64,000 nucleotides of DNA, from assembly GCA_965216305.1 (NCBI GenBank), contig OZ244144.1, forward strand, positions 3,244,409 to 3,308,408, read 5' to 3'. Below, piece after piece: positions 8,703-52,142 of the stretch (position 1 is the stretch's first letter; each line of letters opens with the position of its first letter). The translations under genes and the position numbers were made by a program. The stretch is from Gammaproteobacteria bacterium. GTDB lineage: Bacteria; Pseudomonadota; Gammaproteobacteria; Ga0077536. The notes below the pieces were generated by a model. That model saw nothing but the letters and a program-made list of their open reading frames with translations. It was not told where the DNA came from and did no database searches.

Positions 8703-10676
8703 TCATGCAGTTTTGCTTTGTGCGTCCTGATCCCACAGCTCACGTTCTAGGTAATCGAGTCGCGTCCTGAACCGTGACAATTTTCCGGACGACGTTCTGA
8801 TCAAAGTATGTAATGGCACCAAATCAATGACGCAATCAATACCGAGTTCTGCCCGAATTTCGCGGTCTACGCGCTCGACAAGATTGAGCCGCTTATTGAC
8901 ATCCGATTCACGAACCTGAATAACGATAACGGCCTGCTCCACTCCACCCGTTCCGGGGACCGAAAACGCGGAAGCATTACCAGGCCGGACTTCCGGCTGC
9001 TGTTCGGCGATGTATTCGATATCCTGTGGCCGTATGTTGCGACCGTTGATGGTAATGAGGTCTTTCTTGCGTCCCGTAATTATGATGTCGCCATCCACAC
9101 AGTAGCCGATGTCGCCGGTATCGAGCCAACCGTCCTTGGACAGCACATCCGGGAGATTATCGCTGTCTCCGAAATAACCGGACATAACGCTCGGACCGCG
9201 GACGAAAACGCTGCCGCAGCACCGCTCTGAGAGTTCATCGCCGTTTTCATCACGGATTACGACCTGATGCCCAGGCAGGGGTTTACCGCAATTTACGAAT
9301 TCGTTGCCGCGCGTGCTTTGTCGTGTCGCGTTACTCTCATCAAGCGGAATAGCGCGCTGTTCCACACTTAAACGCTCGGCGTCGATCCACTCCGACTGCA
9401 ATCCGACACTAAGTGGTGCGAAGCTCACCGCGAGCGTTGATTCGGAGAGTCCATAGAACGAGAGGAACGCGGCTCCGTCGAACCGTGCGGGAGCCAGCGC
9501 CTCGGCGAATTTCAGCAGCGGTTCAGGCCGGATATTTTCCGCGCTGATCCCAGCGACGCGCCATGCGCTGAGATCCAGCATTTCCGTGTCTTCGCGACGC
9601 AAGCGTCGGGCGCACAGCTCGTATCCAAACGGAGGGCCAAATGAAATCGTCGCTTTACTCTCGGACATGCGCACGAGCCACTGCCGGGGCCGCATGGCGA
9701 ATTCTCGCGTACCGAGATAATCGACCGACATCTGCGACACCACCGGTGCGAGCACGAGTCCGACGAGGCCCATGTCGTGGTAGTACGGCAACCAGGACAC
9801 GGCGCGATCATTCGGCTGGATCTGCAGATGTTCGACCGTGCACGAAAGATTACTGAGAACCGCGTTCTGTGTAATCATGACGCCGCGAGGAAAGCGGGTG
9901 CTTCCGGATGTGTAATGAAGATACGCCAGCTCGTCGGCTTGCAGCGGACGCAGGGCGACCGGTACTGCTGGGAAATTCGAAAACGCATCGGCGGAACCGA
10001 TGAACTGGAGATGCAGACCCTCCGAGGCCTCGACAAGAAATTCGCCGTATTCGGTAGGACCGACGCACACTCTGGCCTGCGAATCCAATAGAAGACGTCG
10101 CAGGTGGCCAGTGTACTCATGGCCGCCGCCGAGTTGAAGCGGCGGAGGTACCGGCACCGGCACGAGGCCGGCGTACTGACATGCGAAGAAAAACCGTTGG
10201 AAATTAGGGTGAGTCTCGGCAACGAGTGCAACCCGGTCGCCGCGTTTCAACCCTAGGCCATGGAGTCGGTAGGCAATTTCTAGGGCCTGTTCGCGCAACT
10301 CACGATACGGCAGGACAGCGAACAATTTGCCTGTCCCGGTATAGAAATTGCACCCGGTTTCGCCCTGAGCAGCGTAATCTAAAGCCTCGGAGAGATTGGT
10401 GAATTTAGCTGGGCAAAATGCCAGACTGTGGCCTGTTGGTGTTGGTAGAGGTGATGTATCGGTGACGCTTCGAGCAGCCGCTAACAAATTCACACCCGCT
10501 GGGTTATCAAGCTGGTTAGTTTCTGCCAGAAACTGAAGAAATTCCGCCTCTTTCACGGATTCCGCTTTCACGAGATTGGCTGCATTCTCGCCTGCGGCTG
10601 CAAACCGATTTAGTTTCTCGAAAACCTCGTCGTCAATAACGATCTCCTCAGTTACTTTTTCGTCGGATCTGATCAT
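8703..10676 (-). CDS. Adenylate-forming enzyme, fatty-acyl-AMP ligase (FAAL)/acyl-CoA synthetase-like, with an N-terminal extension of about 90 aa.
   Basis: AMP-binding core motifs are present: YTSGSTRFPRGV (A3-like), FYGLSES (A5-like) and WLDTGDIGY...ITGRKKDLITINGRNIRPQDIE (A7/A8, typical of FAALs). The start ATG overlaps the stop of the upstream gene (ATGA at 10673-10676). Confidence 0.8.
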   Translation of the reverse strand: MIRSDEKVTEEIVIDDEVFEKLNRFAAAGENAANLVKAESVKEAEFLQFLAETNQLDNPAGVNLLAAARSVTDTSPLPTPTGHSLAFCPAKFTNLSEALDYAAQGETGCNFYTGTGKLFAVLPYRELREQALEIAYRLHGLGLKRGDRVALVAETHPNFQRFFFACQYAGLVPVPVPPPLQLGGGHEYTGHLRRLLLDSQARVCVGPTEYGEFLVEASEGLHLQFIGSADAFSNFPAVPVALRPLQADELAYLHYTSGSTRFPRGVMITQNAVLSNLSCTVEHLQIQPNDRAVSWLPYYHDMGLVGLVLAPVVSQMSVDYLGTREFAMRPRQWLVRMSESKATISFGPPFGYELCARRLRREDTEMLDLSAWRVAGISAENIRPEPLLKFAEALAPARFDGAAFLSFYGLSESTLAVSFAPLSVGLQSEWIDAERLSVEQRAIPLDESNATRQSTRGNEFVNCGKPLPGHQVVIRDENGDELSERCCGSVFVRGPSVMSGYFGDSDNLPDVLSKDGWLDTGDIGYCVDGDIIITGRKKDLITINGRNIRPQDIEYIAEQQPEVRPGNASAFSVPGTGGVEQAVIVIQVRESDVNKRLNLVERVDREIRAELGIDCVIDLVPLHTLIRTSSGKLSRFRTRLDYLERELWDQDAQSKTA

Positions 10677-11533
10677 TCTTCACCGCTAATAGCGAATTTC
10701 GCTTTCAAACCTTCTTCATTGCTGATTTTGATTCCTTTTTTCCACAAAGTGTAGCGCATCATTAGCGACTGCATCGCCCCTAATGGGCGTCGGTCGGAAT
10801 CGAATAATCCTACTTCCGATGGCCGAACCATGAACGAACCGATTCTTGGTTTTTCGAGCCACGAACATTCCGCATACAGAACTAAATTGCCGAATAGAAA
10901 ATCTCGAAAGACCTTCTCACCGCGGGGCAAGGCAATGACCCAACGCACTCTGTTCTTAGTGTTGATCACGTCCAGCATTCTTTCTGCGCTCAAGAACGTC
11001 GCAGATGAACTTCGCTCAACATCGGCGTCGAACCGGATTTCCGGGGCGGGCACCTTTGTTCGGCTCCCAAGAGTCGGCGAGTTAGCGCCAAGGATCATGG
11101 TCGATTTCCGCCGGATAATGGATCGGTTTTCGTACTCAACATCAATTTGGTGGGCCTCAGTAAATTGATCTATTTCGCCTGAAAAAGCTTCGATGAGTAC
11201 TTCGGCCCCGCTGCATCCGATATAGAAATCTGCTCGCCGGACATGACCCCGCCTTACGCTGATCGGATTAAATACGACATTCAAATCGAGGCGCAATCGA
11301 TTTTCATTAATCGCATCTGGCTCCAACTCAATCAAAATGATGTTTTGCTCTTGCTCTTGGCGAGACATCCAAGGCGCTAAAACCGGTGGCGAAATGGTAA
11401 CTTTTCTCACGACGATTCCCGAGTAGCTACGGTTGAAATCCTTGCCGCGCCTTCCTAATTGTGAAGCTGCAGACGAATCGCTGAACTTGAATATTATCCC
11501 TGCTAGTTTATTGCACCTATGGACCCCGAACAA
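10673..11533 (-). CDS. Hypothetical protein translationally coupled to the FAAL-like gene. The start is uncertain: TTG at 11533 or ATG at 11368.
   Basis: The ORF ends in a 4-nt ATGA overlap with the FAAL start. No motifs recognised. Its 5' end overlaps the tail of the decayed transposase, so the shorter start may be the real one. Confidence 0.5.
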   Translation of the reverse strand: MFGVHRCNKLAGIIFKFSDSSAASQLGRRGKDFNRSYSGIVVRKVTISPPVLAPWMSRQEQEQNIILIELEPDAINENRLRLDLNVVFNPISVRRGHVRRADFYIGCSGAEVLIEAFSGEIDQFTEAHQIDVEYENRSIIRRKSTMILGANSPTLGSRTKVPAPEIRFDADVERSSSATFLSAERMLDVINTKNRVRWVIALPRGEKVFRDFLFGNLVLYAECSWLEKPRIGSFMVRPSEVGLFDSDRRPLGAMQSLMMRYTLWKKGIKISNEEGLKAKFAISGEE

Positions 11534-12531
11534 TCACGCAGCGAGCGGAACGTAGTAATGGTGGAGGCCTCGACGGCAGGAAGCTCGAGAACGTTGTCGG
11601 GATCGGCTGCTCGTACCGAGCAGCCCTCCGGTGCATCCTCGTCCAAAGACCGGTGCGTTCGCTAGGGATGGTAATAACCAAGGTACGACGACAACAATCG
11701 CTTGAGATGCCGTCCATTGAGGATGACAACGTGAACCAGGAGTTATGAACGAAGGCTACCGATCACACATTCAGCATAAGCGTTTTGCCAAGGTGAAGCC
11801 GGCGCCCTAACGACCTCCTATATTCCTAGAGAATCAATTCTTCGCCGGACCCTGTTTCCGTAAATGCCGTCGCCGTCCCGTAACAAGTAACGCGTAGCCG
11901 TATCGAAGGGAAACGCTTCAACCGGTTGCTGCGCCGTCCACTGAGCCGTGGGATGTTCTGTCACATTGAAATGGAGTATGCGCCGCCGATCATGGGCAAA
12001 TACGAGAAAAGCGAACAACCCTTTGAACTTCGCCGTTAGCACGATGAAGAATTCGACAGCGACAGGTTCTTTCAAATGTAAATCGAGAAATGTCCGCCAA
12101 GTCGCGGGCGGTAGCCTGTCCCCATGCGGCTTGTACTTCTCCACCGTCGATTTCGCGACTTCGATCCCGAGCTCCTGAAGTTCAGCGGCGATTCTCGGTA
12201 ATCCCCAAGCGGGATTAGCCCGCCACATCCGCCTGATGAGAATTCGTAATTCGGGCGCGATCTTTGACCGGCCCGGACAACCGCCTTGACTTAGTACCCG
12301 CCGATAATCTCGAAATCGCTTTTGCTGCCAGAGCGCGACCGTTCGCGGTTGAACAAAGTATATGGCTTTCCGCCACTGCGACCGTACCTTCGCGAGAATG
12401 GACCAGAACAAGCGATCAGACGGTGCGATGCGGGGTCTTTTCCCCGTCGATCGGTAAGCCGTAAGCTGATGGCGCAGAACGGCGTTTTCCAGCTGCAATG
12501 ACAGCGGAGAACGATCCGTCGACACGGGCAC
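11517..12531 (-). pseudogene. Decayed IS transposase (rve/DDE integrase-core type), broken by frameshifts.
   Basis: The 237-aa ORF (11818-12531) has an HTH-plus-integrase-core look and stops prematurely. The expected continuation EVVRAPASPWQNAYAECVIGSLR is readable in another frame at about 11745-11815. A further piece, HVVILNGRHLKRLLSSYLGYYH, is readable in a third frame at about 11640-11730. Confidence 0.75.
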
Positions 12532-13052: not shown

Positions 13053-14393
13053 ATGCGTGAGCAAACAGATTTCGAACTCCTTTCGACTGTCGCTTCCATC
13101 TATTCCCAGCAAGCTATTGCTGACGAAATTCAGCACCCAAGGGAAGTTGTCAATCGTTGGCTGAAAGAGCGTGCAAGCGCTGACAAGAAGGCATGGCTAA
13201 CATGGGTTGAGCGTGAGAGCCTGAACGCAATGCTTCCGTCGCCGAGTCAATCGGAACACCAATTCACTTTTATCGACCTTTTCGCCGGAATCGGTGGGAT
13301 TCGAAGGGGATTCGAGGCCGCGAATGGAAAGTGCGTATTCACCAGCGAATACGACAAATATGCCGTCAGAACTTACCTCGCAAACCATTACTGCGATCAC
13401 GTGATCCAAGGCGATATCAGGGACATAACGCAGTCACCAGGAATGAGCGAACGCCAGGCGACAGCGCATATTCGGCGTTCGATTCCTGACCACGATATCC
13501 TCTTGGCAGGATTCCCGTGTCAGCCTTTCTCGATTGCCGGCGTTTCGAAGAAGAATGCGCTTGGACGTGCCCATGGATTCGAGTGTGACACCCAAGGCAC
13601 GCTGTTTTTCGACGTAGCCCGGATAATCGCGGCCAAGCAACCGCTCGCATTGATGCTGGAAAACGTCAAAAATCTGAAGAGCCATGATCGTGGCAAGACT
13701 TTTCGTGTCATCATGGATGTGCTAGATGAACTTGGTTACGAGGTCTTGGATGCCGAATATTCGTTGGGCGACACTGATCCTAAAATTATAAACGGGAAAA
13801 ATTTCGTCCCGCAAAACCGAGAACGGATTGTGTTGGCAGCATTCCGGCGTGACTTGAATGTGGCGCAAGGACTAACGCTCGCTGACATCAAGAAGTTTTT
13901 CCCGAAAAGCCCCCCGAAAGTAGGCGATATCCTTGAGTCGGAATCAGAGGTCGACGATAGGTACACGCTGACCCCGAAACTTTGGGAATACCTTAAGGAC
14001 TACGCCGACAAGCACAAAGCCGCGGGCAATGGTTTTGGGTTTGGCAAAGTGACTGCGGAGGATCGCTCGACGCGTACGCTATCCGCGCGGTATTACAAAG
14101 ACGGCTCCGAAATCCTGATTGATCGTGGGCGTAATATGCGCCCTCGAAGACTGACCCCACGGGAATGCGCCCGATTGATGGGCTTCGACAAGCCGCGGGA
14201 AAGCAAATTCAAGATCCCTGTATCAGACACCCAAGCGTATAAGCAGTTCGGAAACAGCGTTGTCGTCCCGGTCTTCGAAGCAGTTGCGCTGCTCATGAAA
14301 CCTGCAATTCTGGAGGCGCAAAAGGTCGCCGCAAAAAATGCGGCTAAGCAGACCAAGGCTGCGGCGACCCGAAAGAAAAAGAAAGCAGCCTGA
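13053..14393 (+). CDS. dcm: DNA (cytosine-5) methyltransferase with an N-terminal HTH extension (SsoII/EcoRII-Dcm-like architecture).
   Basis: C5-MTase motifs are present: [10 protein letters not shown] (I), GFPCQPFS (IV), ENVKNL (VI), QNRERI (VIII) and GNSVVVPV (X). About 70 aa precede motif I and contain an HTH-like segment, [20 protein letters not shown]. The tail is Lys-rich. Confidence 0.93.
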
Positions 14394-14836
14394 TGGCGGA
14401 TGACGTCTCGCGGGAACAGCGCTCCCGCATGATGGCAGGAATCAAGGGAAAGGACACCAAACCGGAGCTCGTCGTGAGAAAGGCTCTTTTCCGCCGCGGC
14501 TTCCGTTACCGCTTGCACAGAAAGGATTTACCCGGCACGCCCGATATTGTTTTCCCGAAATACCACGCGGTTATCCTTGTTAATGGTTGTTTCTGGCACT
14601 GCCACGAGTGTGAACTGTTTAAATGGCCGAAGAAAAATGCAATGTTCTGGCGGACGAAAATCCTCAATAACAAGACGCGCGATGCACGTAACATGGCACT
14701 ACTCCGGGACGCGGGATGGCGCGTGACTACCCTTTGGGAGTGCAGCATAAAACGCAAACCCGCTAGGAGGATTGAAAGGGAAATTGATCGGTTGGAGGCA
14801 TGGCTCAAGGAAAAGCCGCGGGATTGGCGATATTGA
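14393..14836 (+). CDS. vsr: Very short patch repair endonuclease (Vsr).
   Basis: Sequence includes KGKDTKPELVVRKALFRRGFRYRLHRKDLPGTPDIVFPKYHAVILVNGCFWHCHEC, then FW..K...N..RD, then GWRVTTLWEC, which matches the Vsr family signature. The start overlaps the MTase stop (TGATG). Confidence 0.93.
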   Translation: MADDVSREQRSRMMAGIKGKDTKPELVVRKALFRRGFRYRLHRKDLPGTPDIVFPKYHAVILVNGCFWHCHECELFKWPKKNAMFWRTKILNNKTRDARNMALLRDAGWRVTTLWECSIKRKPARRIEREIDRLEAWLKEKPRDWRY

Positions 14837-14852
14837 ACCGGGGATTGATTCT

Positions 14853-16262
14853 GTGCCACAACAGCCGGGAACGTACGACACCAAGAAAGCAAAAGATCTG
14901 GGTTTGGCGGTGCTTCTCTCCATGTTCGACGACCTTGGCGCCGAGAAAATCTATGCGAAGCAGCTGGCCCCGAACGACAACAGCAAGAATCAACCCTATC
15001 TCGCGGGACATCTGACCGAGGTCGCGTTCCTCCCCACCGGGGAGCTAATCCCGTCGGGGACGCGGTCGCAAAAGACTGCAGATTCCAACCGACAAGTGAA
15101 GTTTCAGGCTCCGATGAACCTCGCCTGGCTGGATCCAGAAGGGCACCTGCACGACGCCCCAAACGCCAAGCTGATCTACTACCCCCAATATCCCGAAGTT
15201 CGATTTTCCGGTTTTCTGAAAGGTTCGTCCGTCAACTTGAGCGAATGGATGAACCCCGCACGTCGGGGGAGAGCGCCAGGTCGCTGGATGATTCTCGGCG
15301 TTAATCGAAACGGTACCGTCTATGCGTATCTGGCAACCCCTGGAAGCAGCCTGGCGAGCCAGCTTGAAAAAACTGAGTTGGTCGACGTGGGCAGTGCACT
15401 ACAGGAAATCCGCGTGAATAACTCGCTCAGCGGAAAATCAACGAAGGAAGTGTTGACGGCCAAGCTAAAGGAGATAAGCGAGCTCGGATGGATCGCCGGG
15501 CAGAAGATGAACGCTGACGGAAATTCCTCTCGCTACAAGGCACCGAACGGCGGAGGCTATACGCTTGAGGCGCTTCTTGGTATTTCACCAAACGGATATG
15601 CCGAACCAGATTATCTGGGTTGGGAGGTTAAGCAGTTCGGCGTAACGGAGTTTCCGAAACGCGGAGCCAAGCCAACAACACTTTTCACTCCCGAACCGGA
15701 CGGGGGCCTTTACCGGCAGCAAGGAGCAGCAGAATTTGTCAGGCGGTACGGATACCCTGACAAATCCGGCGTTCCCGACAGGCTCAATATTGGCGGAAAA
15801 CATACTTTCGGCATACGGGTCGAAGGCACGGGCCTGACCCTTGTTCTGACGGGGTTCGATCGCGACGACTGCCGCATTACCGATGCAAGCGGTGCGATAA
15901 CGTTGCTGGACAATGTGGAATCGGTCGCGGCGCACTGGAGTTACACAAAGCTGATAGATCACTGGAAACGCAAACATGCGCAGGCGGTGTACATACCCTG
16001 CATCAGACGAACCGGGCCAGCGCGTGAGCACGAATACAGTTACGGCGCGGATGTGGAACTCGGGTCCGGCACTGACTTCAACATGTTGCTCTCCGCAATT
16101 TCGGAAGGCCATGTTTACTACGACCCGGGGATCAAACTTGAAAAGGCTTCGAGCGATTCGCCGAAACTGAAAAGGCGGAACCAATTCCGGATCAACCACA
16201 GGCACTTGCAGAATCTCTACACTGAATTCGAGTTTCTTAATGTTTCTGAAAATGGCGATTAG
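14853..16262 (+). CDS. Putative type II restriction endonuclease partner of the MTase/Vsr pair. The start is uncertain: GTG at 14853, ATG at 14922, or the ORF-track start at 14772.
   Basis: It lies immediately downstream and on the same strand as dcm-vsr, the classical M-V-R arrangement. The N-terminal segment YAKQLAPNDNSKNQPYLAG loosely resembles the EcoRII N-domain segment IKRLSANDTGATGGHQVGLY. The catalytic motif was not identified by eye. Confidence 0.6.
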   Translation: MPQQPGTYDTKKAKDLGLAVLLSMFDDLGAEKIYAKQLAPNDNSKNQPYLAGHLTEVAFLPTGELIPSGTRSQKTADSNRQVKFQAPMNLAWLDPEGHLHDAPNAKLIYYPQYPEVRFSGFLKGSSVNLSEWMNPARRGRAPGRWMILGVNRNGTVYAYLATPGSSLASQLEKTELVDVGSALQEIRVNNSLSGKSTKEVLTAKLKEISELGWIAGQKMNADGNSSRYKAPNGGGYTLEALLGISPNGYAEPDYLGWEVKQFGVTEFPKRGAKPTTLFTPEPDGGLYRQQGAAEFVRRYGYPDKSGVPDRLNIGGKHTFGIRVEGTGLTLVLTGFDRDDCRITDASGAITLLDNVESVAAHWSYTKLIDHWKRKHAQAVYIPCIRRTGPAREHEYSYGADVELGSGTDFNMLLSAISEGHVYYDPGIKLEKASSDSPKLKRRNQFRINHRHLQNLYTEFEFLNVSENGD

Positions 16263-28936: not shown

Positions 28937-29408
28937 CGATGCCTCCCTGGATTGAACACGACGCGCATGATGTGCGACGACGGGAGGGCTATCTATGGAA
29001 AATCAATTCAGACTTGTGAGGGGTTATGTTTGAGCTCTGGAGCGAAAATGGGGAACTTGTGTTATCGAGGACGATTCATCTGCCTCCGCTTACGCCGACG
29101 GGCAAACATTCAACTTTGCTAAAAGCGGTATCTAAATTCGCATTAGTCTACGTTACTCAAATTAGATCGGTTTTCAGAGCACCAAACCACTTACAAAGAC
29201 GCTCCCTCAGTATGGGGGCTGTTAACCGAGAAAATTTCTTTGAAAATTCGACGGGGCGGACAGTATCGAAAAAAGAAACTCTCAAGCGCCTACCACGACT
29301 ATTACGAGTAAAATTTAACGTTAGCGCAAATAATACCGTCAATAATTTTACTTCTTTTGATCGATGCACAATGGCACCTGCCCGGAACTCTGGCCGAAGA
29401 GGGTAATG

Positions 29409-30023
29409 TCACCCAAGCGTTTTCTGAATATTCTGTCTCGCCGAGTCCGACAAGCCTCCGAGCTTTGCCAAATTATATCGCCGTTTAATATTTTTGCGGC
29501 CGAATACAGCCAGTAATGCAGTCCATAGCAATTCGCAAGATGACTCGATTCCCAACGGAATGGTTGGCCATGAGTCCTCAAACCCGAGGGGCAATGAGAA
29601 ACTTGTTTCCGTTTTGTCTCTGAGCGATTGACAGAATTGGATGTGATAGAAGTCGTGTTCCCCATCGCTCTGACTCGCGTCAAATTCGTAACATGACGGC
29701 GTTTCGAATCGCATTGCGGATTTATTTCGATCATCCCCAGCCGTGAAGATAGTTACAATTTGGGCGACGACTTCCCCTCTGGTGTTTGTCCTTGCTCGGA
29801 AAACGAACTGTACAGATCTATTCCCTTCACGATACGCAAGGACGTGCTGCCTCGATATTCCCATTTTCGGCGATGATCGAGCACTATCTATGATACTTTC
29901 GCTAACCCTCGGGAACCTCCAATCCATCGCATTTATGGACTCTCCAAAACTGTCAATATCTCTCCCTAAATCGTCCTGAACGGCGGTTAATAGTTCAAGG
30001 AAATCGTCCCAGTCGTTAGCCAT
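29409..30023 (-). CDS. Hypothetical protein (204 aa), last gene of the MTase/GHKL cargo operon.
   Basis: The ATG lies 12 nt after the upstream stop and is preceded by GGGGAG. AT-rich codon usage matches the three upstream genes. No motifs recognised. Confidence 0.65.
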   Translation of the reverse strand: MANDWDDFLELLTAVQDDLGRDIDSFGESINAMDWRFPRVSESIIDSARSSPKMGISRQHVLAYREGNRSVQFVFRARTNTRGEVVAQIVTIFTAGDDRNKSAMRFETPSCYEFDASQSDGEHDFYHIQFCQSLRDKTETSFSLPLGFEDSWPTIPLGIESSCELLWTALLAVFGRKNIKRRYNLAKLGGLSDSARQNIQKTLG

Positions 30024-30035
30024 TAGCTCCCCACG

Positions 30036-31259
30036 CTAGGTTAGCAGTCGGACCTTCGGCTTATACTCCACTTCAATGTTCCCACCGTCAGTCGGGGCAA
30101 CGAGATTTGTCGCAACGTACCGCAGTGGATAAGAAGTGGGAATGTCTGCTCGAAAACGATGACATTGATCGATCGGTCTAAAGCCCGACAAATCTTCACA
30201 GAATCCGAAATCGGGAGTATCGATGAGGTCCCCCATGATTTCTTCAAGGTCGACATTTTTTAGTTTCGCCCAATTCCACACGTCGCGGCCTAACCAGTCC
30301 TGATGCTCATATCGGGCTCCCTCTATATGTGGAGAGTATGTGTAAGTGTTTGTTGGCCTAGCTTCATCGTGAAGTCCACACAACTGCTCAGGGAAGTCTT
30401 CTAATGAAACGCCATTGAAAGCGCCCGGTGCGCGAGCGTACAAATGCGGTGCATCCACCAAGATATGCTGACCCGCAAGTACGAACTCCAACCACCTAGT
30501 GATCCGACTTTGTGCGACCAGTGCAATCCGAGAATCGGAAATTGTCGTTGGAGCGTCATCCCTCGTATAGCTGTCGCGGGTTTTTAAACCCATCGGCGAT
30601 TTCCGAACAAAGTCTCTGATCGATGCACTTTCATAGTCGGAGCCAAGTAGGTCGATATACGCTCTATCGAATTCCGAAATGATATCTCGTAACTCCAGTA
30701 CATCTAAAAGCGGGTCGCTTAGTTTGGTTTCGAGTTCTGCTGCTCTTCTCCGTGCAAGGATGCCCCGCCGGGTTAATAATGGCCATGACCAAGGCCGATA
30801 GCTTCTACCGTCTGATTGACTCCACAGCCTCGGGTTTCGAACGTCTTCGGCCGATACTGACAAGTCACTGAAAGATGTAAGCGATGGTCGAAGGGTTAGA
30901 TCGAAAGTGGGACTAGAGGGCCCTGAATTCAGCATAACAATCGCCCCAACGTCCGAATACCCTCGTGCTAAATACGCAACATCTTCACCTGTGAAAAATA
31001 CGTTGTCGTCATATTCCAGCAAATCAAAATCGATGAAGGCAAAAGCTGCTGAATCGAAAATTGATGGAGACTCGGTTTTGTCATTAGGCGAACGTGCATT
31101 CTTCCTTCGTTCTTCAAGTAGGGAAATTTCATTCCGGAAAGTTTCCTGATCTAACGGAACGATTTCATGATTTTTCGACACGAACTCTGGTAAGCTTTCG
31201 GATAACGAGTCCCGGAAATCTGTCTCGTCATCGATCAATAATAATTTCTGGTTTTCCAA
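30036..31259 (-). CDS. Receiver (REC)-like N-terminal domain protein with an uncharacterised C-terminal domain of about 270 aa.
   Basis: The TTG start directly abuts the TGA of the upstream gene. The N-terminus KLLLIDDETDF (acidic pair), AFAFIDFDL (candidate phospho-acceptor Asp) and GAIVMLNSG (Ser/Thr position) follow the CheY-like pattern. The C-terminal part has no recognised motif. Confidence 0.7.
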   Translation of the reverse strand: MENQKLLLIDDETDFRDSLSESLPEFVSKNHEIVPLDQETFRNEISLLEERRKNARSPNDKTESPSIFDSAAFAFIDFDLLEYDDNVFFTGEDVAYLARGYSDVGAIVMLNSGPSSPTFDLTLRPSLTSFSDLSVSAEDVRNPRLWSQSDGRSYRPWSWPLLTRRGILARRRAAELETKLSDPLLDVLELRDIISEFDRAYIDLLGSDYESASIRDFVRKSPMGLKTRDSYTRDDAPTTISDSRIALVAQSRITRWLEFVLAGQHILVDAPHLYARAPGAFNGVSLEDFPEQLCGLHDEARPTNTYTYSPHIEGARYEHQDWLGRDVWNWAKLKNVDLEEIMGDLIDTPDFGFCEDLSGFRPIDQCHRFRADIPTSYPLRYVATNLVAPTDGGNIEVEYKPKVRLLT

Positions 31260-33440
31260 TCAACGCTCCCACGAAACCATAACGCACGTCTTAAAACCAT
31301 CGTCTGGCTCGACAAAATTACAATCAACGCCAAGACCGCCACACAGCAGGCGAACTATAGCCAAGCCCATCCCCGCGCCTCCCGCGCCAAGCGCTCTCCT
31401 GCTATCGCTAAGTGATACTCGTCTAACGAAAGGCTCGAACAACTCCTCTGCAGTCTCCAAGTTCACTCCAACGCCTACGTCTTGTACGAAAATCTGACCC
31501 GTGTTTTCGTCTGCATAAGACGAAATAGAAATTGTCTTCGTTTCGGAATTGGCCACCGCATTAGCCGCATTGATTAATAGGTTCTGGAAAACCGAACTCC
31601 ATTCAGCATATGTGCCAATTGGTAACTTAAGCGAGCTCGATAATCCTTCAAGGTCTGGCTTAATGCCCCGAAGATATACTCGAGATTGGCTTATCGTTTC
31701 CTCAAGTAGCGAATGAGCCTTCATCGAAACGCGCTCTAAGCGGTTTTCTTCATCCATTAGCGGAGCAAATATTGCTCTTGTATCCTGTGAATGTTGAACC
31801 CAAGTCTTGATGTTCGCAGCGACATGGTTCAATTCATCCAGATCGTTATCTCTCGCCAATCTTTTGAGTTGCGTAGCGATTCGCGACAGTTTTCTGTATT
31901 GTTTTACAGCCTCATGCTCGAATGCGATTGCGCTGATTCCTGCCGTCGCAAGAGCCCCGAGCAAACTCTGTTCCTGCCGGATAATCTCCGATCTCGCCCC
32001 CTCTGCCTTGGCGACTTTCATCAGCTGTCTATGCACCGCGCCATAAACAGGCTCAGGGATCACATCTTGCGCCTCGCGTACTAGCTTTAACACCGAATCA
32101 ACAGTAACAGTCCCAGACGATTCGATTCTTTCAAGAGATTTGGATGCTTGCCTCAGTCGCCGACGAGTTTGCTCCATCGCGTATAGATCGATTCCTATGC
32201 GTACGGTTTTCGCGAGCGATTTGTATGCGCTGTTGTTGAGGAGGCGGTCTCGAGTCACCGCGATCGAGAGTATTTCATCTGGCGACGATATGTCGCCCCT
32301 GCTGCGAAACTCCTGGCCGGTGTCAATATGAACTTCCCCAAGCATGCGAGTTTGCGTGGGAAGATTATTCATCCCATCGGTCTCTTGAAGCGAACTGGGC
32401 AGTAACTTCGATTTGCTTAAACGATGCGAATGGTCTTCCTCGATATTCAACCAGTCGGTTTCAAGTCCATAACTTGAGAGTCCAAAGCCAGAATCAAAGA
32501 TTCGGACGCCACCGTGATGATCCATGTATTCTCGGAGCTCGCGCACCTTGATGCCTAGTGGTTGCCTCCCGACGAAATCGAAAATGAGAATATCAAATTG
32601 CACGTATCCTAGGTGACAATCCTCAAGCAGGAACTCTTTGCTTATTTTCCCGCGCGGATTTTGAAATTCGATTTTGAGGTGTAGCCTACGGCTCTTGTCT
32701 AAATCAGAAGGGCGTGATTCTACAAGCCTACCCGTGATGCGCGCGTGCCAAACGGAATCAAGGATGTTCATCACGTTAGAGAAGCTTTCGGCGGCACCCG
32801 GCGACACGCCCTCAAGGTCTACGCTAAACGTACCTAGCCGGTCTACATTATCTGCGCGGAGCGGGGGAGACAGTTTCCAAATATCTCGGGCAAGGTCCTT
32901 AAATTGACGCTGGGAATCCCAGCTATGAATTAAACCTCCAATCTCTAACCTGAAACCGGATTTTGATCCTAGGTATTCAAAACCGTCATCGCGATATTCG
33001 AAATCAGCTTCGGCTTCTTGTAGATCTTCGGATTCAATTGCGTCATCCCAGTCGATTTCAACGAATAGCTCCCGGTTTTCTCTCCTAGAAGTTGTGGAAA
33101 GCTTTAACGTTCGCCCCAAGTATTGAACGGCTAATCTCCCCACTCCTTTGGACCCGGTGAGTGGCCTCTTGTATTTGGGCGAACTTAAGGATTTTTGTTT
33201 GTGAGGGCTGCCCACTTTCATCCAGTAATCCCTAAATTCGGAAATTGTCATTCCGCTACCGTTGTCTTCGACAATCAGGCTGTTTTTCTCGAACCTTACG
33301 GATACTTTGGTGGCATCCGCGTCATACGCGTTTTTGATCAATTCTCCGACCGCGAGAGCTGGAGATCCAACTAAGCGTTCCCCGAGCTCCCTCAGCAGGG
33401 CGGCCGAGGCCGAGAAATGGAATTTTCCTTTGTTCGTCAT
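31260..33440 (-). CDS. Dual GHKL-fold ATPase: an N-terminal MORC/MutL/Hsp90-like ATPase module plus a C-terminal histidine-kinase-like module.
   Basis: N-terminal Bergerat motifs: ELIKNAYDADA (N box), VEDNGSGM (G1) and GSKGVGRLA (G2). C-terminal set: NLLINAANAV (N box), VQDVGVGV (G1), FEPFV (F box) and GAGGAGMGLAIV (G2). A candidate H-box, AIAFEHEAVKQY, lies about 130 aa upstream of the second N box. ATGA overlap with the MTase stop. Confidence 0.85.
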   Translation of the reverse strand: MTNKGKFHFSASAALLRELGERLVGSPALAVGELIKNAYDADATKVSVRFEKNSLIVEDNGSGMTISEFRDYWMKVGSPHKQKSLSSPKYKRPLTGSKGVGRLAVQYLGRTLKLSTTSRRENRELFVEIDWDDAIESEDLQEAEADFEYRDDGFEYLGSKSGFRLEIGGLIHSWDSQRQFKDLARDIWKLSPPLRADNVDRLGTFSVDLEGVSPGAAESFSNVMNILDSVWHARITGRLVESRPSDLDKSRRLHLKIEFQNPRGKISKEFLLEDCHLGYVQFDILIFDFVGRQPLGIKVRELREYMDHHGGVRIFDSGFGLSSYGLETDWLNIEEDHSHRLSKSKLLPSSLQETDGMNNLPTQTRMLGEVHIDTGQEFRSRGDISSPDEILSIAVTRDRLLNNSAYKSLAKTVRIGIDLYAMEQTRRRLRQASKSLERIESSGTVTVDSVLKLVREAQDVIPEPVYGAVHRQLMKVAKAEGARSEIIRQEQSLLGALATAGISAIAFEHEAVKQYRKLSRIATQLKRLARDNDLDELNHVAANIKTWVQHSQDTRAIFAPLMDEENRLERVSMKAHSLLEETISQSRVYLRGIKPDLEGLSSSLKLPIGTYAEWSSVFQNLLINAANAVANSETKTISISSYADENTGQIFVQDVGVGVNLETAEELFEPFVRRVSLSDSRRALGAGGAGMGLAIVRLLCGGLGVDCNFVEPDDGFKTCVMVSWER

Positions 33441-34468
33441 GGATCCTGCGGCATGTCTTGGAGCTGCTCCCCGATTGCTTTAGCCAAACCCGGTGGCACA
33501 GCATTTCCGATCAGTTTCGCCACCCTGCTTAAGCTGAATTCTTTTCCGGGGGGGTGGAATTCGTAGCCCTCCGGAAAGCTCTGAAGGAGAGCTGCCTCCC
33601 TCAGTGATATGCATCGATCCTGATCAGGATGACCGAATCGGCCAGATCCATAATTGAATGATTGAGTAGTGATAGTCGGTGCGGGAGCGTCCCAACTCAT
33701 TCGACCGTAGACTGGCGTGTACTTTGTACCCTCGCCTTGCTTGTGGCATTCGAGAAGAAGATTCTTCGGCCAGTCTTTCCAACTGCCCGCCGGACGCGAG
33801 CTGCGGATTCTCTGCAGATTAATCGCCGTCAATCCGGCGGATCTGTGCAATGGATCGTCGTCACTGGTTTCGCCGGCCGCTATTGCAGGCAGCGAGCCGA
33901 TCACATCTCGCACAGAAATTTCTATGCCTTGCGGTTTCAACGGTTGAATCGAGCCACTCCGCCTAGCGAGCAGCACAAGTCTTTTCCGGTGTTGCGGTAC
34001 CGCAAACCTGGAACAATCGACTACGTCAAACCAAACACTGTACTTGGCCGCATTTAGGCCGGAAAGGAAATTAGCAAATTCATTGGATTTTCGAAGGTTC
34101 GGCACATTTTCCATCGTGACGACGTCGGGCAACACCTCAAGTACTAGCTGAGCGAATTTCTTTACTAATCGCCATCGCCCTGATCGGCTACGCCCCTGCT
34201 TGTTTGTCAGGCTTGAATATTTTTGACAGGGGGCGCACCCAGCAATCATTCGGGGCGATTTACCTGAAAAATTGGCGCTCAACTCAGAGGCCGTCAGTGT
34301 CATGATGTCACGCAGGTAAAATTTGGACGTTACGTTTGATTCGTACGCGAATTGACAATCGGGGTCATTATCATATCCAGCGACTACCGCTAATCCAGCT
34401 TTCTTCAAGCCGAACGACAATCCACCCGCTCCGCAAAATAGGTCAACTACTTCCACACATTCCACCAA
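33437..34468 (-). CDS. dcm: DNA (cytosine-5) methyltransferase, first gene of the cargo operon.
   Basis: Motifs present: VDLFCGAGG (I), GCAPCQKYS (IV), ENVPNL (VI), QHRKRL (VIII), QSFPEGYEF and GNAVPPGLA (X). Confidence 0.92.
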   Translation of the reverse strand: MVECVEVVDLFCGAGGLSFGLKKAGLAVVAGYDNDPDCQFAYESNVTSKFYLRDIMTLTASELSANFSGKSPRMIAGCAPCQKYSSLTNKQGRSRSGRWRLVKKFAQLVLEVLPDVVTMENVPNLRKSNEFANFLSGLNAAKYSVWFDVVDCSRFAVPQHRKRLVLLARRSGSIQPLKPQGIEISVRDVIGSLPAIAAGETSDDDPLHRSAGLTAINLQRIRSSRPAGSWKDWPKNLLLECHKQGEGTKYTPVYGRMSWDAPAPTITTQSFNYGSGRFGHPDQDRCISLREAALLQSFPEGYEFHPPGKEFSLSRVAKLIGNAVPPGLAKAIGEQLQDMPQDP

Positions 34469-34856
34469 AAATAAAATGTATTCTACTAGCAGCCATTTCC
34501 ATCCTTGCCACTCGATATGCGAAAGCGGGTTTTACAAAAGACGAAGATTAAATCTCTCGAAAACGGCAAAATCAATGCAGCAACCTGTTATTGCGATAGT
34601 TTCCAGTGTCTATTCGATGGCGTTTGCCTTCCAGACCACGAGTCACCCTGATAGAGCAAAAATAGACGCGAAATTACTGCAATCTTACTTGAATCTGCTC
34701 AGATCGTCGTTCTCTACGCTACACGCAGGCTCGCCCGCCTCCCTCAGGCCACTCTAAGTGAGTATGTCAATGCTAGCTGGGTAATTCGGTTCATCTAGAT
34801 TGATCATAAGATTTCCTAGAATCCGGCCCGTTGGACTCAGATCTGCGACCATGGAC

Positions 34857-40529: not shown

Positions 40530-41392
40530 GGTGCTTCTTCCAGTTGGTCAGTGTTGTCGGTCATACCCGGTAACCGCAGCTACCCGGCTCGCTCGCGCGA
40601 ACAGACCGTGGGACACCAATCCCAATAGACCTGAATGTGCCTGGTCTCAGGCAACGCCGTTTTTCCCTGTCGGGTAATGGCCCGGCATTGGCCAACGTGC
40701 CCGTCAAGGGCCTGCTTTGAGTTGTCGTTGCATTGCTGCACCTCCTTTTTTTGAAATTGCGGAAAACTTCCGCGGCGAATAAAAATGAACCGTAACGGCA
40801 TCGCTACCGCGATGGATTCGGCCCTGCAGTTGAAGTCAGGCGGTTGCCTGAATGAGTGAATCGACTGAATGGTCGATTCGGTTTCGAAGATGGATCCGCG
40901 ACTCAATGTCGCTGCGCGTTATTGGATCCGAAGACGCGCTATCGCCACTTTGCCGCAGTGGCCGCGGATGAATTCGATCGAGGGCGGCATTCTAAGAACA
41001 CATAACCCCGCCGTAATCCGAAAATCCAATCGCAAACCCGCGCCGTTAACGGGACTCCGCCCTCGTCACTACCCCGCTGCGCTCGCTAGTGACGAGGGCG
41101 CCTAGTTACAGCTACGGGATCCCGCCTCGTTTTTCATGCTCATGGCGCGAGAGTCTGAAGTTCGTTTTACCTTTGATGGTGAAACCAAGTGACTCTTTCG
41201 AAAACCATGAGCCTTCGACGCAGTGCATTACGATTTGGTCAGATTTCCCGGTTAGCAAATATCTGAAAGCGTTCACCACAGCTTGTAACCAAGCGATTCG
41301 GCAATTATCGTTCAGCGTAACGCCCTCCGATAGCCAGTATCCATGCCGCCTTTTCCGGCAACAAGGATACAAATCAGGAGTCGAGAAGAACA

Positions 41393-41701
41393 ATGGCCAA
41401 TCCTAGTGATCTGGAAACTGCTTTCGACGAGCGCATGCGACAAATATATGTTCAAGCGAAGCACGAATGTGGCTATTCCGCAATCCGGTTCCTGCAAATG
41501 GTTAATACGGACGGCGGACTCGAGACGGCAAGAACGCTGCTTAATTCAGACGCGTATTCCGAAGGTTTGACCAGACTCTGGGAAGAAAAGAGGCTCGACA
41601 TCTCGATGGAAGCAACGTTATTCAGGAACCCTGGAAGCAGTTGTTTACAGAGCAACAACTCACAGTGGCCAGGAAAAAACTCGAAGCACTGGGTTATTTG
41701 A
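41393..41701 (+). CDS. Hypothetical protein, probably frameshifted near 41620-41630. The alternative frame continues to a stop at 41710-41712.
   Basis: Good ORF up to ...DISMEATLF. From about 41629 another frame reads PWKQLFTEQQLTVARKKLEALGYLIDG-stop, which looks like a genuine C-terminus and overlaps the next ATG. Confidence 0.5.
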   Translation: MANPSDLETAFDERMRQIYVQAKHECGYSAIRFLQMVNTDGGLETARTLLNSDAYSEGLTRLWEEKRLDISMEATLFRNPGSSCLQSNNSQWPGKNSKHWVI

Positions 41702-41704
41702 TCG

Positions 41705-42157
41705 ATGGATGAGCGTGTAAGAAAGATCAAAACCGCCAAGGGCTGCGAAATTTTCGCTAAAAACGCGCAGGAGCGAGGACGCCCGGACCTGGCGAATGAG
41801 GCTAAGCGAAGAGCGGTTGAAATACGCGCAGAGGAATACGGCGCGCAATCGGCCGCTGAGAACGAGGCGATACAAGCCATTTATGCCTATGAAGAGGTAT
41901 TGACAAGGAAAAATGGCAAACGGACTCGAGCCTCCCGCACCTGGCAGATGATTAAACGCCACGGAATTATTGAGTCTGTCGAGCGAGCCGTTAACCGCGA
42001 CGCGGAAACCCAAGGCTACACGGCATTGGTCGCGATGGGATTGGAAGATTTCGCGTTTGAGGCGGTAATCCTCCGACATCCGGAATTATTCAGTGAAGCA
42101 GCTGTGAAAAAATCTCGTGAGCGAATGGGCGCGTGGAGAAATACCCGAACCGATTAA
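41705..42157 (+). CDS. Hypothetical protein (150 aa), AT-rich cargo.
   Basis: Clean ORF immediately after the previous gene. It shares a similar-looking helical C-terminal region with the previous gene. No family recognised. Confidence 0.55.
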   Translation: MDERVRKIKTAKGCEIFAKNAQERGRPDLANEAKRRAVEIRAEEYGAQSAAENEAIQAIYAYEEVLTRKNGKRTRASRTWQMIKRHGIIESVERAVNRDAETQGYTALVAMGLEDFAFEAVILRHPELFSEAAVKKSRERMGAWRNTRTD

Positions 42158-42252
42158 ATGACAACTTTGCCGCGGTGTTTATTACGAAAACGGCACGGCG
42201 CCACATGGTTTTCTCATGTTGAATCAAAAGGTATCCCAGCATTAACGAATTA

Positions 42253-42870
42253 TTGACCCGATCGGCGGAACTGGAAGAAACGCTAACTGCATTCCTGAAA
42301 TTAAGGCCGTACGATAATTCTGCGCGAATCGCATCCAGTAGAACCGTGTGCGGGGTTGCGATGGAACATTCCGAGAGCGCGAAAATGCTCATTGCAACCG
42401 GCAACTTCACTTCGGCGCTCGGACTTGTTCGCTTGCAGTATGAGGCTCTCGTCAGGGCAATGTGGTTGCTTTATGGCGCATCAGAAGCCGATGTATCGAA
42501 ACTGGCGAGCGACCTCACCGAGGTCACGGCCAGAAAGGCCCAAAAAATGCCAATGCTTACTGAGATGCTTAGATCCCTTGAGGGAAAAGCCCCTCGAGAC
42601 GCGATGGATCAGCTAATTGAGTTCAAAGAATATTCCTGGAAGCCGTTGAGCTCATATGTCCACGGCGGCATACACGCTATTCATCGCCACGGTAAAGGTT
42701 ATCCGCCACGGTTACTCCGGCAGGTTTTAAAAGCGTCGAATGGCGTCTCAATAATGACCGGCATGCTACTTGTAGTTCTTTCAGGCGATACGGCACAGCT
42801 TGGGAAAATTCCGAAAATTCAGCAGACGTTTGCGGATTGCCTGCCGGAACCGAAAATCGATGAATCGTGA
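42253..42870 (+). CDS. Hypothetical protein (205 aa, TTG start).
   Basis: Clean ORF in the same AT-rich cargo patch. No motif confidently recognised. Confidence 0.5.
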   Translation: MTRSAELEETLTAFLKLRPYDNSARIASSRTVCGVAMEHSESAKMLIATGNFTSALGLVRLQYEALVRAMWLLYGASEADVSKLASDLTEVTARKAQKMPMLTEMLRSLEGKAPRDAMDQLIEFKEYSWKPLSSYVHGGIHAIHRHGKGYPPRLLRQVLKASNGVSIMTGMLLVVLSGDTAQLGKIPKIQQTFADCLPEPKIDES

Positions 42871-43000
42871 CGATCCGATCGACGTGTCGGCGAACATCAC
42901 GTTTATATGGAGTTTTCCGAGAAACTACAACCATATCCCGTTCTCGTCACCCGCTGGAGAGATTGTCTCTCCAGCGGGGTTGTGGTTTGGAAAAGAGGCT

Positions 43001-50844: not shown

Positions 50845-51923
50845 TGGATTACACCTTCCGACTTTCGATACGACTGACTGACAACCTCATTGTTCGTCAT
50901 AATTCGATCGCTCCTGATCTCGACGTCCGACCATGTGTCCTTATTGGCCGTGCTGTGTTTCCGATTACCGAGCTGCAGGCCGCCTATCCAAGCGATGTAG
51001 ATTGCAGTCGATTCCACTTGCGAGTTGCCGACAGTAGCAATGGATATTTTCACCATCAAGCTACCAGCCGGGGTATTTTCTTATCGCTCTGCTAACAAAA
51101 TTGTGCACCCTCTGCACGCCGGAACGCGGTGGGTGCTCTCCAGCAGTTCGGTTGTGTAGAAGCGGAGTTTTGGAAATATTTTTGCGTCAATTTCGTGAAT
51201 TTTTTGTCTGACCGAAGTCGTTCGGAAACGCTAATCGCACCTCGGATTATCTCAAGACTCAGGCCGACGGTATCTGGATGCCATTCCTATACAGATTTAT
51301 TGATTTCAATATCGCGCGGGAATTCTTCCTGCGGATCACATGAGCATTATCTAATCGCGCACACAACGTGTAGCCGTTCGTAGCAGGTCGTAACGCTTTA
51401 GGTTCGGAAAGTCGCGTTCTTGGAATCTGAATTTTTCCGAGCTGCAACGGAGCGTTTCCGATATCGGTATCGGGATTCCGTCAACCCGTTCGCGGCAGCT
51501 GGACGGTTGTGGCGGGTAGGCGAATCTTCCCGACCGGGATTCGTAGCGTGTTCGCGTCCTGTCCGAATCGACGTTGGCTCTGGCGAAGCAGTTGAACGAT
51601 TCGCTCTTTAGCGGACCAGTTGTCTGAGGTCATCACTTCGATCCGGGCGTGATTGCCTTTACCCGGGTGCTAAACATTTTTCCTTTGCCTGGTAATTTTT
51701 CCCCGTGCTAACGTTTTTGCAAATCGTGTTGACCCGGCAACATCCTGGACCTAAGCGACCCTTCGGATTTTGGCGCGAGCGCAATCGTGGTTTATTCCCG
51801 CGACCTTCTACCTGAAAGCGTTCGTACCATTGACTGGATCATTTACGGGATTCGCGAACGACGGGAGCGGCGCTACGTTCGCACCATCACTTGTAATCAA
51901 TACCAAGCCAACGAGGCGAAATC

Positions 51924-52142
51924 ATGGACACGAATTCGACTCCCCTTTTTTTATCAGAAGGCGAACTCTTTGAACTGACCGGGGTCCGTAGAACGTCAGC
52001 GCAGAAGCGCTGGCTGGCCTTGTTCAACGTGCCTTTTAGGGTCAACGCCCGGGGCCGTGTTATCGTATTGCGCAGTCATTTCGTTGCGCAAGAACAACCG
52101 AAACACGCGAAGTACGTCGCCAATGTCCCGGAAAAACCGTAA
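51924..52142 (+). CDS. DUF4224-like small protein (excisionase-like partner of the integrase).
   Basis: FLSEGELFELTGVRRTSAQKRWLALFNVPFRVNARGRVIVLRSHF resembles the DUF4224 pattern. It overlaps the integrase start. Confidence 0.6.
   Translation: MDTNSTPLFLSEGELFELTGVRRTSAQKRWLALFNVPFRVNARGRVIVLRSHFVAQEQPKHAKYVANVPEKP

Follow-up and report, generated by a model that had tools for sequence, protein, structure and literature searches.

A C5-methyltransferase, MORC-like histidine kinase and receiver operon in a gammaproteobacterial conjugative element: a putative phosphorelay-gated immune module

The gene cassette described here lies at positions 29409-34468 of a 64,000-nucleotide stretch of DNA, the window of this study, from a Gammaproteobacteria bacterium (assembly GCA_965216305.1, contig OZ244144.1, positions 3,244,409 to 3,308,408). 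It consists of four tightly packed minus-strand genes encoding, in this order, a C5-cytosine methyltransferase (MTase), a GHKL ATPase joined to a histidine kinase, a receiver protein with an additional C-terminal domain (P3, P3-CTD) and a small fourth protein (P4). The four genes are a co-inherited operon and thus a real system. With a probability of roughly 55%, the cassette serves in immunity as a methylation-linked module that spreads horizontally, is gated by a phosphorelay and uses the P3-CTD and/or P4 as effector, a mechanism that we infer. The system class already has a validated member, the Ambrosia system, but the receiver-effector and the fourth protein of the subtype in the window are undescribed.

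The coordinates and junctions of the four minus-strand genes, as they had been read in an earlier note made from the sequence alone, agree with the open reading frames (ORFs) and junction sequences. The MTase gene (33437-34468, minus strand, 343 aa) is the first gene of the operon and shares an ATGA stop/start overlap (CCATGACG) with the following gene for the paraMORC-like GHKL ATPase fused to a histidine kinase (31260-33440, minus strand, 726 aa). The TGA stop codon of the latter directly abuts the TTG start codon of the P3 gene (30036-31259, minus strand, 407 aa), and a gap of only 12 nt separates P3 from the P4 gene (29409-30023, minus strand, 204 aa). The same arrangement was found in many other genomes. 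The profile search with P3 in 1.84 billion representative proteins yielded 736 clusters (at 50% identity), and the P3 relatives are only about 30-36% identical and all unannotated. Loci were collected from the sequence contexts of P3 relatives and by scanning a single genome of each species (46 loci), and were annotated with iterative hidden Markov models (HMMs). The gene for the GHKL kinase is situated immediately upstream of P3 in all 50 loci long enough to include this region, a P4 homologue follows downstream of P3 in all 47 loci with enough sequence, and a C5-MTase gene is adjacent, either upstream or downstream, in 38 of 45 loci with adequate flanks (~84%). The synteny of the four genes, whose examination had been suggested beforehand, is hence kept for kinase, P3 and P4 in about 50 loci. 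An arrangement that is repeated in the same order in about 50 independent loci goes far beyond what chance would produce. The view that unrelated cargo genes were only brought together by accident, without a joint function, is effectively refuted by this synteny, since the reading frames overlap or abut and the order is the same in about 50 loci from distant phyla at a protein identity of 30-40%.

The product of the first gene matches the C5-MTase family PF00145 over practically the whole profile (E 2.9e-51, positions 2-323 of 324), and the translation contains the motifs FxGxG (motif I), PCQ (IV), ENV (VI), QxRxR (VIII) and GNAVPP (X), which bears out the complete C5 motif set noticed before. 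Further matches were obtained with TIGR00675 (1.8e-35) and with the PADLOC models MTase_II and DrmMII (~1e-78). Among the relatives, Vsr is encoded adjacent to the MTase or fused to it in 21 of 52 loci (~40%), and this linkage argues that the MTases of the relatives really make 5-methylcytosine. The fused Vsr-C5-MTase proteins, with MTases of 570-640 aa, occur in six loci (L020, L028, L030, L040, L043, L050); the Vsr domain is N-terminal in most of them and C-terminal in L028, and the fusion was confirmed with Pfam for L043.

The second protein harbors two Bergerat-fold modules, one MORC/MutL-like and one kinase-like, as had been proposed. The N-terminal MORC/MutL-type ATPase domain (aa 28-135, 33036-33359, minus strand) was detected with HATPase_c_3 (PF13589, 9e-24), while HATPase_c (PF02518, 1.6e-18) identified the histidine-kinase catalytic (CA) domain (aa 616-719, 31284-31595, minus strand). 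A DHp-like helical region with an H-box was assigned to 31761-31973 (minus strand) by the conservation of the pair H509-E510 (H509 codon 31914-31916). When the window protein was compared with 40 distinct relatives, the N-terminal ATP site was invariant (E33, N37, D40, D59xGxG, G96xKGxGR) and H509-E510 was conserved in at least 98%; the pair is still found in at least 90% when distant clades are included. H509 is the histidine of the FEHE sequence that had been suggested as H-box candidate. The boxes of the CA domain are invariant or nearly so (N620/N624, D654xGxG, F668xPF, G685xGGxGxGL), and the middle region of the protein (aa 140-480) is conserved as well. The first ~130 aa resemble NF050001, the N-terminus of BbrUII/HgiDII (3.7e-22), and also MutL, and the N-terminus matches the REase_II models of PADLOC (~1e-10). 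The C-terminal part gave PDB matches to CpxA, EnvZ and WalK and also resembles PhoR. The HMM of the kinase family recognized the window protein with 4e-271, and the protein is a full-length homologue of plasmid genes annotated as 'sensor histidine kinase'. On these grounds, the 726-aa protein unites a MORC-like ATPase with a complete core of a histidine kinase. Nuclease, helicase and McrBC families were not detected in any of the four proteins by scans of the family, NCBIfam, PADLOC and PDB sequence libraries, in line with the initial impression that restriction nuclease, helicase and McrBC motifs are missing.

P3 itself had no match in Pfam, NCBIfam, PADLOC or the PDB sequences. However, the AlphaFold2 model, which was calculated with 36 homologues as input, is of good quality (pLDDT 86.8, pTM 0.89), and Foldseek assigned the first ~135 aa to receivers (ArcA and MtrA with probability 1.00; PhoB, Spo0F and others with 0.9-1.0). 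The structure model thereby confirms the predicted receiver (REC) fold for aa 1-136 (30852-31259, minus strand; D77 codon 31029-31031). Across 177 members the acidic pocket is highly conserved, D10 in 98%, D11 in 95% and D77 in 98% (174 of 177), and D77 is the aspartate of the IDFD sequence that had been named as phosphorylation site candidate. The position of the usual Thr/Ser is occupied by N111 (95% of the 177 members), and the Lys position is K or R in only 57% (R124 in the window protein). Hence, the earlier assignment of a CheY-like receiver fused to an unknown domain of about 270 aa was right with regard to the receiver fold and to the lack of relatives of the second domain, but the receiver is less canonical than CheY, with Asn in place of Thr and a non-conserved Lys. 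Taking together the invariant H, N, G1, F and G2 boxes of the kinase, the REC fold and the conserved acidic pocket, a bona fide His-Asp type pair of kinase and P3 is supported, and phosphotransfer may take place between them. Additional near-invariant acidic residues occur in the receiver, namely D69, D79 (forming a D77-x-D79 motif), D120 and D132 (window ~30864-31055). Together with the absence of the usual Thr and Lys they are unusual for a receiver and may point to an additional metal site or to phosphorylation by an altered chemistry. A Toprim- or HAD-like N-terminus, which came into consideration due to D77-x-D79 and the extra invariant acids, was rejected, because all structural neighbours are receivers and the P3 gene abuts that of a kinase with an intact H-box.

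The P3-CTD (aa 137-407, 30036-30851, minus strand) is a candidate output or effector domain and is modelled with confidence. Near-invariant among the 177 members are D269, H272, R276, E355 (100%), D356, S358 and R380, and according to the model the domain is largely helical over aa 160-265. No Pfam, PADLOC, NCBIfam or PDB sequence match of the P3-CTD was found in any of the 36 members, and Foldseek searches of the PDB and BFVD with the full P3 model returned receivers only. The fourth protein, P4, is fast-evolving, so that a search with the single sequence found one relative; its family was reached via the alignment of neighbour-gene products, which showed that the genes following P3 in the 47 loci mentioned above are P4 homologues. 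Its AlphaFold2 model (pLDDT 79.9, pTM 0.80) has no credible neighbour in the PDB according to Foldseek (best E 0.11, probability 0.12), and ZinT, p32 and PARP WGR domains appeared only as noise (probability <=0.23). None of the 32 P4 members matched Pfam, PADLOC or PDB entries, HNH families included, and phmmer and profile hmmsearch runs with P3 and P4 against the PDB sequences likewise gave noise only. The presence of two modules of unknown kind, P3-CTD and P4, was therefore correctly anticipated, and the suggested AlphaFold2 and Foldseek search for cryptic effector folds in P3 and P4 revealed none.

The family alignments of P4 display a signature of the type R105-x-E107 ... H123-x3-H127-x-Q129 (29637-29711, minus strand), in which R105, H127 and Q129 are invariant, while E107 and H123 are invariant or nearly so, depending on the alignment. 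The pattern H..[FYCH]H.Q occurs in 43 of 48 P4 ORFs, whereas all 2690 other ORFs lack it. The fourth genes of a Hymenobacter locus ('HPLYHVQFG') and a Paraburkholderia locus ('HPIFHAQLG'), both linked to N6-MTases (L056, L057), contain it as well; therefore, P4-like proteins are not confined to C5-MTase-linked loci. A tblastn search of plasmids with the Paraburkholderia fourth gene gave a self-match only. The histidines H123 and H127 raised the idea that P4 could be an HNH/His-Me nuclease, which was rejected since neither the beta-beta-alpha-metal topology nor a family match was found. Based on their conservation, the polar clusters D269/H272/E355/D356/S358 of P3 and R105/E107/H123/H127/Q129 of P4 appear enzyme-like. 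Two peculiarities of the P4 family were seen in single loci: one locus encodes two tandem P4 paralogues (L004, 3623-5334), and in a subset of five (L010, L014, L030, L036, L046) the protein has a conserved C-terminal extension of ~80 aa with the sequence 'YPGC-x-I-x-GITK'.

The earlier note had regarded an MTase combined with a phosphorelay pair as not described. This claim is not supported, because the architecture of MTase, kinase and receiver was reported in 2021 (PMC8011034) and again in 2025 for Ambrosia; what is new is the subtype, since Pfam, PADLOC, NCBIfam, the PDB and BFVD contain no relative of P3-CTD or P4. Bellieny-Rabelo et al. (2021; PMC8011034) described, by computation only, soluble HK-like proteins of the composition HATPase_c_3+HEF_HK+HATPase_c beside RR-like Response_reg_2 proteins, with C5-MTase genes upstream, Vsr genes downstream and an over-representation of restriction-modification (R-M) genes, and traced its origin to the paraMORCs of Iyer et al. 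2008. The cassette shares with these HEF_HK (PF19191)/Response_reg_2 (PF19192) pairs the kinase architecture, the H-E pair in the DHp region, the adjacent receiver-like gene, the soluble nature, the paraMORC origin, the linked C5-MTase (upstream and with ATGA overlap in the window) and the frequent Vsr among the relatives. In contrast, Response_reg_2 is reported to have a conserved Thr and Lys (PMC8011034), which are missing from the P3 receiver, and P4 is an extra conserved component of the window system that is not described in this work. The window kinase does not match PF19191 at E up to 1, 7 of 34 members of its family do so at E <=0.1 (best 7.3e-5), and the Paraburkholderia homologue reached E 0.0079 with 17.1 bits at a cut-off of 24.1; since the distant clades score worse, the best match must come from within the clade. 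PF19192 and PF00072 were matched by none of 36 P3 members at E up to 1, the PF19192 run being made without a positive control.

Ambrosia was validated as anti-phage defence in Pseudomonas aeruginosa in a 2025 preprint (bioRxiv 10.1101/2025.09.30.679545). It comprises genes for the XRE regulator AbrR, the N6-MTase AbrA, the HATPase/kinase AbrB, the REC protein AbrC and the HNH nuclease AbrD, and defence needs every gene as well as the REC aspartate, as the exchange D60A abolishes it (10.1101/2025.09.30.679545). Using the sequences from Table S1 of the preprint, in which AbrB comprises the first 399 aa only, the window kinase is 36% identical to AbrB over 159 aa of the GHKL domain (BLASTP, E 2e-21), and the family HMM scored 5e-50. 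Both systems combine in one operon a DNA MTase, a soluble sensor kinase with HATPase_c_3 and HATPase_c domains, a REC protein and a small fourth protein. The differences are equally clear. The MTase of Ambrosia is an N6-adenine enzyme (AbrA) and that of the window a C5-cytosine enzyme; the XRE/HipB-like AbrR at the head of the Ambrosia cluster has no counterpart, since no ORF for an XRE or C-protein regulator exists at 34469-34856; AbrC is a REC protein of 209 aa (Pfam Response_reg), whereas P3 has 407 aa with a unique 270-aa domain; and AbrD is a canonical HNH nuclease, whereas P4 has no HNH family match. In hhalign comparisons the P3 family reached a probability of 2.7% with AbrC, with only the first strand aligned, and the P4 family 0.1% with AbrD, i.e., no relation of P3 and P4 to AbrC and AbrD is detectable. 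The best reading is that the window system is a sister subtype of Ambrosia, with a common kinase scaffold and an unrelated receiver-effector and fourth protein.

The same modular logic with other parts is evident on plasmids, where tblastn with the kinase found 102 records. The Paraburkholderia locus encodes a helix-turn-helix (HTH) protein, an Eco57I-like MTase, the kinase, a 355-aa and a 225-aa protein; the Hymenobacter locus the kinase, a 367-aa protein, a 289-aa protein and an N6 MTase; a Rhizobium locus the kinase, a 438-aa protein, dcm, vsr and an EcoRII-type nuclease; and a Campylobacter locus the kinase, a REC protein and a C5-MTase. When P3 was aligned by hhalign with the receiver-like partners from Paraburkholderia and Rhizobium, only the first REC elements were matched, with negligible probability. 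The Hymenobacter locus (L056, NZ_CP014303.1, 1-4856) adjoins genes for a Piwi-domain (prokaryotic Argonaute-like) protein and a 1118-aa DNA methyltransferase, that is, a dense defence neighbourhood.

Other described systems share single features with the cassette. The window protein resembles the paraMORC GHKL ATPases of R-M systems (Iyer, Abhiman & Aravind 2008; PMC2292703) in its N-terminal GHKL domain of the MORC/MutL type, whose ATP motifs are intact, and, across its family, in the neighbouring genes for cytosine methylases and Vsr. In VcSduA (paraMORC3/Shedu), the GHKL ATPase is required for the linked nuclease to defend (PMC12137116). However, the GHKL domain of paraMORCs and VcSduA is joined to a nuclease, TIR or other effector, whereas it is joined to a histidine-kinase core in the window; therefore, the signal is probably passed by phosphorelay to separate proteins. 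With the type II restriction enzymes of the BbrUII/HgiDII family (NF050001) only the N-terminal domain of the kinase corresponds (78.6 bits vs a family cut-off of 550), while the remainder is kinase. A classical type II R-M system is not indicated, as no nuclease family or fold was recognized in any of the MTase partners. The logic of a kinase acting on a receiver-effector is shared with the defensive two-component system Detocs, whose histidine kinase reportedly responds to infection by phosphorylating a receiver that is joined to an effector domain. Detocs is said to have neither an MTase nor a MORC-like domain, and to use another kinase and a PNP-type ATP nucleosidase as effector. None of the four window proteins matched a PADLOC model for the Detocs proteins DtcA, DtcB and DtcC (kinase, buffer REC and REC-PNP effector), and P3 and P4 (36 and 32 members, respectively) matched no PADLOC model of any known system, the presence of Detocs models in PADLOC v2.0.0 being unverified.

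If the cassette acts as the phosphorelay-gated immune module favoured here, the C5-MTase would mark the resident DNA, for which its intact motifs and the frequent Vsr linkage in relatives speak. The N-terminal GHKL domain and the middle region could serve as an ATP-driven, dimerising sensor of the DNA state or of infection, by analogy with paraMORC, MutL and VcSduA. Its activation would then lead the CA domain, whose boxes are invariant, to autophosphorylate H509, and the phosphoryl group might be transferred to D77 of P3, where fold and acidic pocket are seen, at the position equivalent to that of D60A in Ambrosia. Phosphorylation of D77 may finally release the output by P3-CTD and/or P4. Such output would most likely attack invading DNA, because sister systems place HNH, EcoRII-C or other nucleases at the same operon position. 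The effector step depends on this positional analogy, because no effector fold was recognized in P3-CTD or P4. It is a more tentative suggestion, which we consider possible yet somewhat short of even odds, that P3-CTD and P4 represent two folds not seen before, which together form a phosphorylation-triggered effector, either a new DNase or a cytosine-methylation reader with toxic activity. The system would then be a distinct, unnamed defence system using post-translational His-Asp signalling and not Ambrosia-style transcription.

Several observations weigh against the immune module. Apart from the missing effector or nuclease fold in P3-CTD and P4 by sequence or structure searches, the P3 receiver has Asn instead of the canonical Thr, and its Lys is not conserved, so that the kinetics of phosphotransfer, and even phosphorylation, are uncertain. 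In seven Poribacteria loci the core is intact although no C5-MTase gene adjoins it; one of them (L023) has two N6_N4 MTases instead. MTase-less cores are unexpected for a simple restriction of unmethylated DNA, unless an unlinked MTase serves this purpose. Moreover, methylation did not protect phage in Ambrosia (10.1101/2025.09.30.679545), and a scan of viral contigs for P3 relatives found none.

The Ambrosia authors favour infection-induced transcription as mechanism for the homologous kinase/REC pair and have shown infection-induced expression (10.1101/2025.09.30.679545). Transferred to the window, P3-CTD would be a novel DNA-binding output that induces the operon, P4 alone would be a nuclease or toxic effector, and the product of the MTase would be a protective mark or a target. 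The helical stretch of P3-CTD (aa 160-265) is compatible with a DNA-binding module, and P4 occupies the position of AbrD. However, searches of Pfam and the PDB and with Foldseek found no HTH or winged-helix match for P3-CTD, and its residues E355-D356-x-S358 with the fully conserved E355 as well as D269/H272 look catalytic rather than DNA-reading. The low-GC (0.456) intergenic region upstream of the MTase gene (34469-34856, minus strand), the presumed promoter region of the operon, contains no consensus sigma-70 promoter and no notable repeats or operator-like sites, nor does it encode an XRE co-regulator. Scans for promoters, terminators and repeats around the operon gave nothing exceeding the shuffled expectation. 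Since the genes are translationally coupled, any induction must also hit the whole operon including the kinase. We consider transcriptional gating unlikely.

The distribution of the family bears on the question of immunity. Its hosts belong to Poribacteria, Chloroflexota, Bacteroidota, Acidobacteriota, Actinomycetota and Elusimicrobiota and include Accumulibacter, Methylococcaceae and three archaea; two actinobacterial plasmids also carry it. Candidatus Poribacteria, symbionts of sponges, account for ~17 of the 46 species-level loci (among them L007, L011, L013, L016-L019, L021, L023, L024, L026, L027, L033, L034, L038 and L051). Megablast searches of plasmid and E. coli genome collections with the cassette found nothing. 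Genes of type I and MmeI-type R-M systems and AAA_15/AAA_21 ATPases are neighbours in the relatives. In two loci the core is nested in a type I R-M locus (L017, L019), in L017 between HsdR/HsdS and HsdM and beside an AAA_15/AAA_21+DUF3696 ATPase. Decayed copies exist in L028, L046 and L047, where the genes for kinase and/or P3 are fragmented into several ORFs, and an insert of ~1.3 kb interrupts the kinase gene of L038 (4752-6066). As far as can be judged from the genomes, such decay agrees with the turnover that characterises defence genes, and the patchy spread over bacterial phyla and archaea, with pseudogenes, likewise appears typical of them. The defence role proposed in the earlier note is hence retained as the best reading, given the carriage on integrative and conjugative elements (ICEs) and plasmids, the R-M and defence neighbours, Vsr and the patchy spread, while its effector step stands by analogy.

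It could be argued that the cassette is a signal-controlled epigenetic switch and not an immune system, in which kinase and receiver regulate the MTase and P3-CTD and P4 act as accessory regulators. Indeed, an enzymatic activity on DNA can be assigned to the MTase alone, a recognisable nuclease is absent from the four proteins, and eukaryotic MORCs act in epigenetic silencing (PMC8011034). Nevertheless, the core persists when the MTase class is swapped, as for N6_N4 enzymes in L023 and for Eco57I-like or N6 enzymes in L056 and L057, or when the MTase is absent. The MTase seems to be an exchangeable part and not the regulated centre, because the core outlasts its swap or loss. Furthermore, the neighbours are R-M and defence genes, the homologous Ambrosia is a defence system, and the distribution is patchy, driven by horizontal transfer and accompanied by pseudogenes, making a pure switch improbable.

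The flanking genes identify the host element as an ICE of the PFGI-1/ICEclc type, with TraD (TIGR03754), TIGR03747, RAQPRD (TIGR01690) and TIGR03746/03749/03750/03752, which verifies that the cassette is cargo of a conjugative element. It represents an insert of ~5.9 kb of low GC between the gene for TIGR03747, its upstream neighbour, and the RAQPRD gene, within the conjugation gene cluster. As had been claimed before, it is AT-richer than the backbone: its GC content is 0.493 (GC3, i.e., at third codon positions, 0.47-0.53) vs 0.57-0.61 in the flanks, and the GC3 of the ICE backbone genes is 0.72-0.75. The traD gene of the backbone shows only remote similarity to Pseudomonas plasmid traD. This location inside the conjugation cluster and the relatives on plasmids would also suit a selfish addiction module that stabilises the ICE, in which loss of the element dilutes methylation and the sensor/effector kills the cell, all the more as R-M systems are known addiction modules (PMC8011034). 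Most relatives, however, are chromosomal in metagenome-assembled genomes without an evident mobile-element context, and MTase-less cores exist. We give little credit to addiction as the primary role, although it is compatible with defence.

The same ICE carries further cargo. A second cytosine-methylation module was found in another low-GC island (13053-16262, plus strand), where a 446-aa C5-MTase (13053-14393, plus strand; MTase HMM 3.4e-27) is abutted by a Vsr gene (14393-14836, plus strand; Vsr HMM 2.7e-44), and a 496-aa ORF (14772-16262, plus strand) could encode the cognate restriction enzyme of this module. The cassette studied here lacks a Vsr gene, and the one in the island could act for its MTase as well. 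Beside the island, at 8703-12531 on the minus strand, the translations suggest a 657-aa ORF with the AMP-binding-enzyme motif YTSGSTxxPRGV, a 286-aa orphan and a 237-aa ORF resembling a transposase/integrase fragment. The low-GC spacer between P4 and the RAQPRD gene contains a 126-aa ORF (29026-29406, plus strand), which is either a fifth cargo gene or spurious. Dips in GC (~0.51 vs ~0.6) at 41000-43000 and 51000-52000 suggest further cargo inserts in the ICE.

The question of how MORC-type GHKL ATPases sense DNA, and to what they signal, concerns bacterial immunity as well as eukaryotic epigenetic silencing. The cassette appears to wire a MORC-like module to a readable output, namely the phosphorylation of a defined aspartate on a partner protein. 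If the phosphorelay gates the effector directly, the cassette would provide a compact model for a methylation-aware DNA sensor that triggers immunity, and would enlarge the defence repertoire by two new effector folds. Current annotation misses the family, as no Pfam, NCBIfam or PADLOC models exist for it. Hence, family models would annotate hundreds of loci, which are concentrated in sponge-symbiont Poribacteria and in Chloroflexota.

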